Shown here in pieces: positions 3,301-57,500 of a stretch of DNA of 64,000 bases; within the stretch, counting starts at the first letter, position 1, and every line of letters starts with the position of its first letter. This DNA comes from Chrysomallon squamiferum (taxonomy: Eukaryota; Animalia; Mollusca), in NCBI GenBank assembly GCA_012295275.1, contig CM022674.1, positions 10,974,001 through 11,038,000 of the forward strand. Direction: 5' to 3'. Position numbers and translations under genes: made by a program. The notes beneath the pieces are model-generated. The model ran no database searches. It saw only the letters and a list, made by a program, of their open reading frames with translations, and was not told the origin of the DNA.

Positions 3301-6300
3301 CAACATAAGAACAAATATACAAACAAATGTATGAATAAATATATGAACAACATACAAACAAACGTATGAACAAATATATGAACAAATGTACAAAGAAATG
3401 TATGAACAAATTAATGAATATATTAATGTTTAAGGTGACTAAATGTGTATATAAATAAATGGATGAATGAATCTTTAACATCAGTGTGCATGTTAAAAAT
3501 ATTTTAACAACTTAATTAAATGTGTTGACCTCAGCAAATATTTTTTTTTAAACGAGACAATTACTATTATTATTTTTTCCCCCTCTCTCTCTCTCTAATG
3601 ATTTTTATATGATGACTTGATTATATATATATATATATATATATATATATATATATATATAGTATTTTTTGTGTCTTGTTTTGTTCTCAAAACATAGCTC
3701 TTTTTCAAGTAATATTTTAAATTTTTCTCTTTAGTTTAATCTGTTTATGCTTTTAAATGTTTCTTTCTCAGATTATGTGTTTTGACAATTAACATTTGTG
3801 TTTCAGTATGGAAGGTACATGCACTATGAACGTAAAGGTGTTGGCCTTGCCTATGAACTGGTGCAACGAGATCTCAGTCTCAAACACAACATCCTCTACT
3901 ACTACAACATGCACCTCAACAACAAACTCCACTACACCAACATCATCTCATCAGATGGCATTCTTGTTGACCTAACCCCACCCACTCCAGGTATGAATAC
4001 ACAAACACAAAGTCAGAGTAATTGTACGTATGAATACACAAACACAAAGTCAGAGTAATTGTACGTATGAATACACAAACACAAAGTCAGAGTAATTGTA
4101 CGTATGAATACACAAACACAAAGTCAGAGTAATTGTACGTATGAATACACAAACACAAAGTCAGAGTAATTGTACGTATGAATACACAAACACAAAGTCA
4201 GAGTAATTGTACGTATGAATACACAAACACAGAGTAATTGTACGTATGAATACACAAACACAAAGTCAGAGTAATTGTACGTATGAATACACAAACACAA
4301 AGTCAGAGTAATTGTACGTATGAATACACAAACACAAAGTCAGAGTAATTGTACGTATGAATACACAAACACAAAGTCAGAGTAATTGTACGTATGAATA
4401 CACAAACACAGAGTAATTGTACGTATGAATACACAAACACAAAGTCAGAGTAATTGTACGTATGAATACACAAACACAGAGTCAGAGTAATTGTACGTAT
4501 GAATACACAAACACAAAGTCAGAGTAATTGTACGTATGAATACACAAACACAAAGTCAGAGTAATTGTACGTATGAATATAAATAAAAATTTAGGGTTTC
4601 GAAATTGTGATTCAACTTTTTAAAGGTTTTTGTTTTTTGTCCACTGTTTAATTTTATATTGTCATTCTTTCTTATAAACTTTTATTTATCTTTCTTCTTT
4701 CTTTCTTATTTATTTTACTGATTTCTTTCTCACTTACTGCTCATACATACTCTTTCTCTTACCTTTGTTTCTTTATTTGTTTATTAATGAATTTAATTAT
4801 TTCTTGAAACATTTGTTATTTATGTATTTATTTATTTGCTTATTCATTTATTTATTTATTTATTTATTTGCACGCACAGGACACATGGAGAATGTCACAC
4901 ATGACAAACTTGATGTTGTTCCGTGTCTCAGTATGATTCCAGCAGACAGACCTGACTGGAAACCCAGCTGTAGAGATGTGTCCAGTTTAGTCAAAAACCA
5001 CCGGTAAGTGGTGTCTTGTCATTATCATTATTATTATTATTATTAGTTATTGTTGTTCTTCTTATTATTACTACTAATATCATTATTTTTTTTATTATTA
5101 TTACTGTCTATCTACATATTCATCAATCTATCTATCCATCATCCATCTGTCTATCCATCTGTCTGTCTGTCTCCAAGTAAGTGACAGTCCCATTTGATAC
5201 TTGTAGCCTAAACTTGGACTATTTAAAGAATTCTACATAACCAGTAAATAACATGATAATGTGTTAATATTGTGATGTTGTTAAAGAAATGTTGACTATT
5301 TAGGACTGTACATGATGGTCCTGGGTCTAAGACTGTCTTCAATGGAGACAATGTGACAACAGATCTTCTCTACACCAGATCTAACAAGTTTCTTGCAGGT
5401 GATAATTAATTTCTAACATGTATATATATATACAAAACCTTTTGTTTTGTTTTTATTATTATTTTTGTTATTATTTTTTTTTATATTTACATATTAATTT
5501 TTATATATTTTTTACATAGTATATTTATACTTTGTTATAGATATTATCTTTTCTTTTACCAGTTACTGTTCTTAATATGATTATCATTTCTGTTTTTATA
5601 GTCATTATTATTTCATTGTGTGTGTGTTTTTGTGTGTGTGTGTGTGTAAAATGAGGTTTATCTTTAAAAATAATACACACTCTCAGTAAAATTTGAACAC
5701 CTCCATTTGATTTGGTTTGGTTTATATGTATATATATATATATATATATATTTTTTTTTTTGTATATTTTCTTATTTGTGACTGCAATTGTTTTATTTTG
5801 TTGTTGATCTTTCGTGGATTTTTAAAATTATTTTTTGTTTGATTGTATATTTAGATATAGTCAAGAAGTGTTTGTCAAGCTAATTTATTTATTTATTATT
5901 TTTTTTTATTTATTACAGAATCTACATTAATTATTTTTAAATTTATTGTTTTCAGCATTACCTGTTTTTGAAATCTGGTGCTGATATACTTTTTGTTTTA
6001 GAGTGTTGTGACTATTCCTTCCTTCATCCATCCATCCATCCATCCATCCTTCAATATATTTATTATATTTTATTTTATTTCAGCACACTGGGATGGGATT
6101 CAGGACAGGGAGTCTGGGATTTTAGGGTACACATGGACGGTTGGGCGAAAAGTGTGTGAAGAACTGATTCATCCACATCACGACCCACACAAACATTTCT
6201 TTGACAAAACAGAATGGTCGAACATTGGACTCATCTCTCCAGTACCAGCAGAACACAACCCCCTTCCAGGTAATACTAGTTTCTATATAGTATGTACAGA

Positions 6301-54500: not shown

Positions 54501-57500
54501 TTTTACTCTCAAATTAATTTCTTTGTTTGCTTTTTTTTAAACATCATATTAAAAACAACAACAACAACAACAACAACAAAAAAGGTTATGATAGAAGTTG
54601 ACTATAGATCATATAAACCTGAAGAAGTAATATATATCATAATGTAAAATGTATCTTTAATACCTAAACAGTTCAATGTTCCACCTCAAACTACATATAG
54701 AATTAATAAATATAAAATAATTGTATAAGGTGTGTATATACACACATACAAACCCACAGATTTACATATATCCAGTATTACAGATATATTAAAATTTTAA
54801 ATATATCCAGTAAATTAGCTTTCAGATATACATTAAAAATTTTAAAAAAGACAAACAATGGAATGAAATATTTTTTATATGTAAAAATATAAACTTTACC
54901 ACTAGGATGGAATGATAATAATGTATATTACTGATGTAAAAATTTAAACTTTACCACTAGGATGGAATGATAATAATGTATATTACTGATGTAAAAATAT
55001 AAACTTTACCACTAGGATGGAATGATAATAATGTAAAAAAATATAAACTTTACCACTAGGATGATGTAAAAATTTAAAAAATACTTTACCACTAGGATGA
55101 AATGATAATAATGTATATTACTGATGTAAAAATATAAACTTTACCACTAGGATGGAATGATAATAATGTATATTACTGATGTAAAAAATATAAACTTTAC
55201 CACTAGGATGGAATGATAATAATGTATATTACTGATGTAAAAATATAAACTTTACCACTAGGATGGAATGATGCTGCTCGACAAGGTCCTTTATGAGCAG
55301 TGACGTAACATGTCTCATACAGTGCAGCTTCTGCAGATATTGTCTGAACTGGAAAAAATATTTGTTTAAATTCATTGTAACACAGTAAAATAATTAGTAA
55401 AAAATTGATAAAATGTAATAAATAAATAAATAAAATATCGAAAAAAATATAATAACAATAATAAATATATAAAAGTAAAAATAAAAAATTAAGGTAAGTA
55501 TTAATAGTAACAACAACAGTGATTGTAGTAATAGCTGTAGAAGTAATAATAGTCATAATAACTGTAATAATAATAATAATAATAATAATAATAATAATAA
55601 TAATAATAATAATAATAATAATAATAGTTACAATAGTAACAACGAGGCGACCATAATAAATATCAATAACTGTTAAGCAAGAATAAATACAATAGCAATA
55701 ATAGTAATAAGTTATTATAACTAATAATAATAATAAATAGTTATAAAAAAACATCAAAACAACAATACTGACAACTACTGATTAACAATAAAAATAGTAA
55801 CTACTACAACAACAATAATATTGATTATGACAACAGGAATGAAATGTCTACATGTACATTTATACCCTTCCAAGTAATTTGTTTTTGTTTCTTTTTTTAC
55901 TGTTTATCTTTCAACCCTTTGATTACTTTTTTAATTTTTTTTCTTTTTAACATTAGGTCAGTCTTTGCTCATAATAAAGTTTGTAGCTACTAATGGAAGC
56001 TGTTGTAATTTAATTTTGAATTGTATACAAGTTTGTTACATATATATATATACATGAAAAAGAATATAAAACTAACATCAAGAAAATGAAAAGCTCATAG
56101 GAAATCATAAAATAGTTTGTACATTTGCATCCTGTGAAGTACTTTTTAAATGTTTAAATGGAGAAGGAAAGGAATAATTTTATTTTACTGGAACCTGATC
56201 TTTGCTTATAATAAAGTATTTAACCACTTACAGAGGCAGATTTATTATTTTTTTTTTATTTTATTTTATTTACTGCTGATATTACTACATATTATATAGA
56301 AGTGTAGAATAATATAAAACCATTTCAAGTAATATTCAGAAAATACATATTGGAAATATGTTAGATGCATTAGGTTATGTCTTTGGGTTGTATTACATGC
56401 ATACTATATACAGTTAAAAGAAGAATAAAATTTGATAAAATTACCCTCTGTTTCATACTCAAGATCAATGCCAGATCCAGGTGTGACTACCTCAGCATTC
56501 AGCTGTCTGCTTTCCAAGCTGTCTAAAAAATAAAATAATAAAATAATCTTTAAAAGTTTATATTTTATTTCTTGTTCCTCTTCATTTTGACATAAGAAAT
56601 CAAAATAATTTATGTCATAGTTTGCATCATTTCTGCAGGCTTGTTTAAAGGTTTGTTGATTATTAATGTGATTAAAAAGGACAAGACTGACTGGTATGAA
56701 AAAGTGTGATGTTCTATTAGTTAACATGAAGATGATAAATCTGATAAATATAAAAGCTTTTAATGATAAAAAAAATTAAAATATATATATATATCAGTAA
56801 TCAACCCATATCATATTTATCATTAAAAGCTTTTATATATATATATATATATAAATATGAAAGTATCTGATGATGAATAAATATGAAAAAGGGTTGATGA
56901 TTGATAAGTAATGGATCAAACATAAATTAATATGAAAAGGATGATAGAAAAATAAGGGGTTGATAGTATGAAAAAGGTTTGATGATAGAAAAATAAGGGG
57001 TTGATAGTATGAAAAAGGTTTGATGATAGAAAAATAAGGGGTTGATAGTATGAAAAAGGTTTGATGATAGAAAAATATGAAAGGGGAAGATGATTTATAA
57101 ATTCAAAAAAGCCTTGAAGAGGGATTAATATAAAAAAAATAATAATCTGATGATGGATTAAAAATTAAAAAATTAAAATAATGATGCCAATAAATTTAAC
57201 TCAGTAATAAAAAGGAGCCTATTTTCTGAAAATAGAAAATGTTTGTTACTTTAAAAGACTCGATACTGACCCTCCTCGCACTTGATTCCGAGTTTGACAA
57301 TCTGTAGTAGTCTGTCTGACGGAGGGCAGGCAGGTGCCGGGTGGTGAGGTCGTAACACTTTCTGACAGGTCACAGCAAGTTCAGTGTGCCCATCATAGAT
57401 TAACTGACTATAAGTAAATAAATATATATATACACACATAAAATTAATAATAGGTAATAAAATAATAAAATATGAAAACAAGTAATTAAATAAATAACTA

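Follow-up and report, generated by a model that had tools for sequence, protein, structure and literature searches.

Mirage-type minisatellites at the exon-intron junctions of two genes of Chrysomallon squamiferum

The minisatellites known as “mirages” reportedly go back to an original paper by Canestro et al. in 2002 (PMID 12087171). In amphioxus they occur in Adh3, the globins BflGb6 and BflGb9, troponin C, and PGBD5, where they lead to no aberrant mRNA and are proposed as a route of intron gain that leaves splicing undisturbed (PMC3087553, PMC3902484). The mechanism behind them is called unclear in one of the reports (PMC3087553), and length polymorphism and somatic instability are features reported there for the amphioxus arrays. 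Junction-spanning VNTRs are also known in human genes, namely in intron 7 of F7 (37 bp), in the interferon-inducible 6-16, in intron 13 of CBS, in LMNB2, and in intron 4 of PDGF; the first monomer spans the donor and is followed by up to 25 identical pseudo-sites, with the most upstream donor used alone or mainly (PMC1557585). In F7 only the upstream donor is used, and mutation of this authentic site activates the next copy, while two inner donors are in constitutive use in 6-16 and CBS (PMC1557585). In human duplicated genes, variable internal tandem repeats at exon-intron boundaries can activate cryptic sites (PMC2812944), and a tandem-duplication model of intron gain is attributed to Rogers 1989, as cited in PMC3087553. 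The open-access literature yielded neither a genome-wide test of junction enrichment nor a molluscan report.

Here we describe similar arrays in a window of 64,000 nucleotides, by which we mean the whole stretch of DNA analysed. It holds two genes whose hand-built models comprise 68 introns and 136 junctions, with a median intron of 564 nt and a GC content of 0.47 in exons vs. 0.26 in introns:

394..46103, + strand: host gene 1, 57 exons inside the window, 5′ end outside it, ~3570 codons
48588..58110, − strand: host gene 2, CSTF1, 13 exons and 12 introns, open spliced frame

The CSTF1 exon model is supported by homologue segments that stop at identical exon edges, 10 of the 11 segments of Gigantopelta aegis P0065 being 81–100% identical. 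From the analysis itself the host is likely a deep-sea gastropod close to G. aegis. For the large gene the junctions are supported by frame continuity and not by homologues, with frame and phase running on through 56 of its 57 exons after four hand corrections. Its product is predicted to be a single-pass membrane protein, given a hydrophobic stretch near the C-terminus; four of 11 exons tested gave Pfam matches (Fn3-like, PAN, Ig/cadherin-like, and EGF), all weak and below curated cut-offs, and two exons used as queries found no homologue among proteins of up to 2000 residues, a weak negative. The arrays and duplications at or near junctions, together with one off-junction counter-example, are the following:

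3991..4579, + strand: donor array, 37 nt × 16, beginning with the exon 5 donor GT; unit without exon bases
6249..7394, + strand: donor mirage, 48 nt × 25; unit of 21 exon and 27 intron nt
7421..7810, + strand: acceptor mirage, 29/30 nt × 13; 17 exon nt in the unit
9188..9540, + strand: array of 42/45 nt × 8, stopping 11 nt short of the exon 11 acceptor; junction not copied
18164..18563, + strand: array of 65 nt × 6, extending to the exon 23 acceptor AG
25861..26925, + strand: acceptor mirage, 33/37 nt × ~30; 7 exon nt in the unit
27381..27776, + strand: acceptor mirage, 86 nt × 4; 37 exon nt, copies 98% alike
29449..29530, + strand: exon 36 acceptor in two diverged copies at a spacing of 39 nt; frame kept, stop present
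35168..36906, + strand: off-junction counter-example, 23 nt × 75, within intron 43; nearest junction 154 nt away
41747..42893, + strand: acceptor mirage, 53–69 nt × 19; 57 exon nt in the unit
48688..48812, − strand: acceptor mirage, 39/43 nt × 3, CSTF1 last exon
51440..51747, − strand: CSTF1 exon 8 donor present three times, at spacings of 147 and 105 nt; ~30 exon nt
54879..55272, − strand: donor mirage, 55 nt × 8, CSTF1 exon 4; 17 exon nt in the unit

All 12 junction sites listed in a preliminary description of this DNA are present in the sequence. They make up ~9% of the junctions (12/136) and ~6.2 kb of the 43.2 kb of intron, and they include the housekeeping gene, since CSTF1 is affected at three of its 12 introns, as had been said. 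Eight of the 12 lie on the acceptor side, an excess over the donor side that is not significant (P 0.39). Ten consist of head-to-tail units of minisatellite size (29–86 nt, 3 to ~30 copies); the other two, 29460 and 51530, are spaced duplications of two and three copies that TRF does not report. The arrays at 6249 and 7421 together occupy intron 8 except for ~65 nt, and at 41747 the copies decay away from the exon, the AG being lost in the seven distal ones.

For the census, an array was a TRF hit with a period of at least 20, not microsatellite-like, and with a score of at least 100; these thresholds, picked after the window had been seen, and for one window and two genes, gave 15 intronic minisatellites, with the array at 256–329 left out of the tests because its intron extends beyond the window. 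Nine of the 15 touch a junction (3991, 6249, 7421, 18164, 25861, 27381, 41747, 48688, and 54879). When arrays were collapsed to one unit and then placed by chance, 2.34 were expected for gene-wide placement (P 8.7e-5), so that the observed number is about four times chance, and 4.68 for placement within the own intron (P 0.0097). The earlier observation is thus borne out in part; its count of 12 of ~14 arrays was too favorable, as six of the 15 do not touch: not only 35168 (154 nt away) and 56940 (193), which had been taken as the only interior ones, but also 9188 (11), 17324 (12), 43762 (28), and 20673 (166). That at 9188 had been classed as an acceptor-side junction array, yet it carries no junction copy. 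Eleven of the 15 are nevertheless at most 12 nt from a junction, and among arrays of at least four copies 8/12 are on one (1.83 expected, P 5e-5) and 11/12 within 30 nt (3.1 expected). Microsatellites also crowd there, with 16 of 43 within 30 nt vs. 8.8 expected (P 0.006).

Could the excess be a matter of detection, units that contain exon appearing complex while AT-rich interior duplications are dismissed as low-complexity? The signal does weaken as the filter is relaxed, the junction-touching share passing from 9/15 through 9/19 and 9/26 to 9/34, where P is 0.025 gene-wide and 0.24 within the host intron, and probes from exon edges hit their own intron only modestly more often than probes from exon interiors (10/136 vs. 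4/129). However, gene-wide P stays at or below 0.025 under all seven filters, the loci gained are mostly two-copy, low-score compound microsatellites, the junction units of 3991, 9188, and 25861 hold few or no exon bases, and seven edge matches score 16–20 of 20 vs. 9–11 for the four interior ones. Such a bias is thus a highly improbable source of the pattern.

At nine of the 12 sites (6249, 7421, 25861, 27381, 29460, 41747, 48688, 51530, and 54879) the unit spans the boundary, and the 18164 unit contains the exon head in diverged form (shuffle P 0.0005). To that extent the units derive from their local junction, as had been proposed; the 9188 unit has no copy of it, and that of 3991 only starts on the GT. 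An exon-derived origin was not established for the units of 3039, 17324, 43762, 3991, and 9188 (shuffle P 0.06, 0.11, 0.43, 0.70, and 0.95, respectively). Exon bases per unit go from 0 to 57, the spread that random breakpoints around a junction are expected to give. Inspection found the units mutually unrelated, and probes taken from exon edges match the intron they adjoin more closely than the other 67; this bears out the earlier statement that each array has its own unit, and a dispersed repeat or transposon-derived intron family was rejected.

The junction arrays of the window are mirage-type minisatellites, a structure already known from amphioxus. Like the amphioxus mirages, they are tandem units of tens of bases spanning the boundary, at 5′ as well as 3′ boundaries, with AG/GT kept in many but not all copies and with an own unit at each locus; like the human VNTRs, they have a unit that spans the junction and identical pseudo-sites that trail behind it. 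The inclusion of intronic sequence in the units, first held to be new, is thus shared with these mirages and with the human F7, 6-16, CBS, LMNB2, and PDGF VNTRs (PMC3087553, PMC3902484, PMC1557585). What sets the window apart from the amphioxus reports is the high density (12/136 junctions) and an excess over chance that is quantified. The human cases are isolated, on the donor side, and in different genes, whereas here acceptor arrays are as common or commoner and there are many per gene. In the cases of PMC2812944 and Rogers, new introns come from exonic repeats, whereas here existing introns are enlarged, with no new intron or exon shown.

When a junction-spanning unit is duplicated, the first donor or last acceptor still yields the old mRNA and the extra copies become intron. 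That an array extends into the intron, with its outermost copy preserving the frame, is therefore a geometric consequence of junction duplication and not evidence of design. Nor is the outermost site the sole frame-preserving one, as had been stated: inner donors 1–5 and 7 at 6249 preserve the frame without introducing a stop (16-aa units), as do four inner acceptors at 7421. Altogether 11 arrays carry 117 extra splice sites, with GT/AG kept in 109; the 10 just mentioned, confined to two arrays, are the open-frame ones, and the remaining 107 bring a frameshift, a stop, or a lost splice signal. The figure of up to ~25 competing sites was sound, there being 24 extra donors at 6249 and 27 extra acceptors at 25861. 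Inner donors are weak at 3991 (median score 2.9 vs. 10.1), and at 6249 21 of 24 score as high as the first. The functional sites at arrays score 5.1–10.1 for donors (median of all donors 8.0) and 3.7–13.4 for acceptors (median of all acceptors 9.4); junctions that carry arrays show no leaning toward weak or strong sites, and the idea that arrays back up weak splice sites was rejected.

A function for the arrays, whose inner sites would tune splicing or nonsense-mediated decay, or which at 6249 would add one to five 16-residue units with an N-X-S sequon extracellularly, is very unlikely. The open inner sites at 6249 and 7421, the strength of those 21 donors, and a weak conservation of the junction cores would all suit it, as would the inner sites used in human 6-16 and CBS (PMC1557585). 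Yet no open product comes from nine of the 11 arrays, 10 of the 24 spacings at 6249 differ from 48 nt, a single open unit in frame out of 11 would be expected by chance, and the amphioxus mirages go without aberrant mRNA (PMC3087553, PMC3902484). With 107 of 117 extra sites lacking an open frame, junctions of ordinary strength, and CSTF1 array positions not common to other animals, the tuning, peptide repeats, and new exons first suggested gain no support here.

We consider it probable that these mirage-type arrays reflect junction-biased duplication followed by growth through ordinary slippage and unequal exchange, and are tolerated because the exon-adjacent site wins. Small duplications would start more often at splice junctions; the arrays would then grow by the usual minisatellite turnover, and be tolerated as splicing picks the site adjoining the exon. 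They are likely near-neutral, the extra splice signals being ignored by-products rather than a control device. Speaking against this, extra copies are not purged and may be kept, as suggested by the 109 of 117 that retain GT/AG and by junction columns that vary less than other unit columns (relative 0.33–0.6; five of 12 tests with P 0.02–0.05, uncorrected). Purging of decoy sites was accordingly rejected, the copy variation pointing the other way, and a Fisher P of 0.004 is invalid here because copies share mutations.

Mutation bias and preferential retention, the two causes named at the outset, are both still live. The least certain part of our explanation is that the excess comes rather from a mutational bias at the junction, which seems a little likelier than not, than from selective retention, to which we give a lesser but real chance. 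The bias might arise from template switching at the sharp exon/intron GC step (0.47 vs. 0.26), or else from a paused, spliceosome-loading polymerase. Retention acting without any such bias, with duplications that arise evenly and last longer where they cover a junction, as exon-side deletions are harmful and spare copies buffer, is unlikely. It would fit the less variable junction columns, the short introns (which suggest deletion pressure), and the F7 copy activated upon mutation of the authentic donor (PMC1557585), but in-register collapse would presumably remove junction and inner arrays equally easily, and the very young arrays of 3991, 27381, and 54879 (95–98% alike) are already on junctions. 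Buffering, moreover, cannot explain the arrays at 9188, 17324, 43762, and 3039 and the microsatellites, which hug junctions without a junction copy.

An assembly artefact hardly deserves credence. Short-read contigs were compared at 9400–9700 (the 9188 array) for four of the 11 listed runs; they break inside arrays and so carry no copy number, and the DNA contigs do not cover exon 11, which carries no weight either way. A 72-nt contig crosses a unit-to-unit joint of the array in all three DNA runs, which come from three studies (one possibly the source of the assembly), the copies bear shared, graded variants, and like structures are found in the short-read contigs of other animals. In an RNA contig exon 10 is spliced to 9552, behind the array, though this array has no junction copy and contigs drop rare isoforms. 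In favor of an artefact, exon 11 (9552–9687) carries a frameshift and a stop, and it departs from the RNA contig at just the place where it resembles the array unit; the consensus close to arrays can thus contain errors, and copy numbers may be imprecise. The 9188 unit and exon 11 share an 18-base match, which was rejected as a clue to origin, the RNA contig lacking six of the letters and differing at three others. Arrays of this kind lead gene prediction astray and, as exon 11 suggests, can introduce errors into the assembled exon beside them. A genome with arrays at ~9% of its junctions is a good test bed for a possible effect of splicing on local mutation, and for how as many as 27 identical decoys are passed over by the spliceosome.

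More speculatively, in many marine invertebrates the junctions themselves may be hot spots of duplication, where a lesion tied to transcription or to the spliceosome would seed tandem duplications within ~30 nt and the junction core would serve as exchange point, lowering core variation in the spare copies; we hold this possible, but doubtful. If true, such genomes would allow the mutational footprint of splicing to be measured, and with it the raw rate at which tandem duplication leads to new exons and introns. In other animals, 34 of 47 metagenome loci of CSTF1 were used (L002–L035, in 20 sequence groups), leaving aside L001, one uninterrupted match, and L036–L047, of 22–32% identity. The array-bearing CSTF1 introns are at positions common to these loci, including other molluscs, so that their gain by tandem duplication was rejected. 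At the three array junctions themselves, arrays were found in 0/5, 0/10, and 0/6 sequence groups. The 34 loci hold 12 arrays, an underestimate as these are short-read contigs: six lie 190–470 nt from a junction, two are beyond the mapped exons, and one starts ~17 nt from a junction, while, at junctions other than the three of the window, that of L003 ends ~10 nt before an acceptor and those of L002 and L025 span acceptors.

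The AT-rich DNA of the window is of animal type and carries two complete or near-complete genes, both annotated by hand from the sequence, with phase and frame verified by scripts:

394-46103, + strand: large gene of 57 exons, its 5′ end lying beyond the window
58110-48588, - strand: CSTF1, 13 exons, whose edges match homologue segments

After four boundary corrections, 56 of the 57 exons of the large gene are in phase and open. Weak Pfam matches (Fn3-like, PAN, Ig/cadherin-like and EGF) appeared in 4 of the 11 exons tested, all below curated cut-offs, and no homologue was found with two exons as queries and proteins of up to 2000 residues. 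Its exon 45 (690 nt) contains coding repeats at 37878-38145 (81 nt x 2 plus 18 nt x 7.5), which are in frame and encode a low-complexity DGPT-type stalk. Exon by exon, the nearest of 65 proteins to CSTF1 is that of the vent snail Gigantopelta aegis, at 81-100% in 10/11 segments, so the source animal is probably a gastropod akin to it. Together the two genes have 68 introns and 136 junctions, with a median intron of 564 nt; GC content is 47% in exons and 26% in introns.

The preliminary description placed 12 of about 14 complex tandem repeats at splice sites. All 12 sites are present in the sequence, but the denominator was too small: the arrays starting at 17324, 20673 and 43762 (arrays are named here by their start in the window) also lie off junctions, and 9188 merely abuts one. 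Under a fixed rule (intronic, period of at least 20, not microsatellite-like, TRF score of at least 100), there are 15 arrays, of which nine touch a junction and 11 lie no more than 12 nt away. When every array was collapsed to one unit and then placed at random, 2.34 were expected to touch (P 8.7e-5), or 4.68 when placement was confined to the array's own intron (P 0.0097). Among the 12 arrays with at least four copies, eight touch a junction (1.83 expected) and 11 fall within 30 nt (3.1 expected); laxer filters leave 9/34 touching, with P up to 0.025 gene-wide and 0.24 within introns. Independently of TRF, each exon's own edge was probed against the adjoining intron, with interior probes as control, yielding matches for 10/136 edge and 4/129 interior probes. 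Seven of the edge matches score 16-20 of 20, all at sites of the preliminary description, and the interior ones 9-11. Within the window the junction excess is real and roughly fourfold, and it is based on a dozen events.

The units measure 29-86 nt and are unrelated to one another in sequence, which bears out the earlier view that they do not form one dispersed family. Exon sequence is absent from the units of 3991 and 9188 and at its maximum, in 41747, makes up 57 of 67 nt; in the latter array, copies are more decayed the farther they lie from the exon. The unit of 18164 terminates on AG and includes the head of the exon in diverged form (P 0.0005 by shuffling). As had been described, arrays extend into the intron and the outermost copy restores the mRNA. 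Any duplicated junction-spanning unit gives both, however, so this geometry is not independent evidence, nor is the property exclusive to outermost copies. Across 11 arrays, GT or AG is kept at 109/117 extra splice sites, and an in-frame, stop-free product results from 10/117 (four at 7421 and six at 6249, the latter encoding 16-residue units that contain an N-X-S motif). The functional sites are neither unusually weak nor unusually strong. Column variation across spare copies gave no sign that decoy sites are purged; junction columns are somewhat less variable than others (uncorrected P 0.02-0.05 in 5/12 permutation tests), which hints at most at decoys being kept or serving as exchange points. 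Intron 8 (6270-7793) is nearly all donor array and acceptor array and collapses to ~65 nt: it is therefore a very short intron grown to 1.5 kb.

Such minisatellites, whose unit spans the exon-intron boundary of the host gene, were named mirages in amphioxus, and this defining feature is found at 9/12 window sites. The window arrays are a new, dense member of that class: real, enriched and known in kind. A search of the open-access literature found neither a molluscan report of such arrays nor a genome-wide test of junction enrichment. The interest rests on why duplications prefer splice junctions.

How, then, might they arise? Quite probably, a small duplication would form at or close to a junction, escape selection because the exon-proximal site still yields normal mRNA, and be enlarged and homogenised by slippage and unequal exchange. 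Experiments on human F7 support such tolerance: among identical donor copies, the upstream one alone is used (PMC1557585). Function is a very improbable alternative for the arrays at large, and possible at 6249, given that splicing at inner donors is known from human 6-16 and CBS (PMC1557585). As the cause of the junction excess, mutation bias is favoured over retention: young arrays already occupy junctions, and the same zone is crowded by arrays that hold no junction copy and even by microsatellites. Among 43 intronic microsatellites, 16 lie within 30 nt of a junction (8.8 expected, P 0.006), those nearby sitting 3-30 nt off with none touching; at 60 nt the excess is absent.

With the G. aegis protein as query, a scan gave 47 loci, of which 34 intron-bearing CSTF1 loci of other animals were kept, in 20 groups. 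Two carry acceptor mirages:

L002, 6177-6566: 56 nt x 7
L025, 1-716: 72 nt x 10

In a third locus, L003, an array ends ~10 nt ahead of the acceptor. None of the junctions concerned carries an array in the window, and the window's three CSTF1 junctions carry none elsewhere (0/5, 0/10 and 0/6 groups). Different junctions being hit, such arrays recur at shifting positions, as would be expected of a neutral process. At L029, an array (1828-2193) stops just short of what may be an acceptor, where the contig ends.

Eleven sequencing runs from three studies are listed for 43400-53300, nine covering part of it. Four runs (three DNA, one RNA), all as contigs, were checked on 9400-9700. Each of the three DNA runs, one of which may be the assembly's source, has one 72-nt contig across a unit-to-unit joint of the 9188 array, from which copy number is unreadable; 72 = 42 + 30 would fit a self-looping 42-nt unit. 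In the RNA run, a 753-nt contig passes directly from the exon 10 end to 9552, showing that the 9188 array is spliced out. Exon 11 in the window (9552-9687) has a frameshift and a stop, with an 18-base match to the adjacent array unit, and it is where the exon resembles this unit that the RNA contig differs, by 6 letters missing and 3 changed. On the simplest reading, the neighbouring array likely led to an error in the consensus; a broken allele is possible.

Other repeats were seen near donors. A 12-nt x 31 array (3039-3411) begins 17 nt past the exon 4 donor. Some of its units look like the final bases of exon 4 (shuffle P 0.06), and it is possibly an old, detached mirage. Just past the exon 24 donor, a ~16-nt motif, noted by eye only, is present in five or six copies spaced 90-110 nt apart (19580-20040) and may be a decayed array. 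Also by eye only, CSTF1 intron 11 shows apparent, MITE-like terminal inverted repeats at 49180-49780. Finally, a candidate third gene (58639-61440, + strand) stands head to head with CSTF1, with ~530 nt between its apparent start and the CSTF1 start codon:

near 58639-58907, + strand: candidate exon
near 60192-60275, + strand: candidate exon
near 61362-61437, + strand: candidate exon
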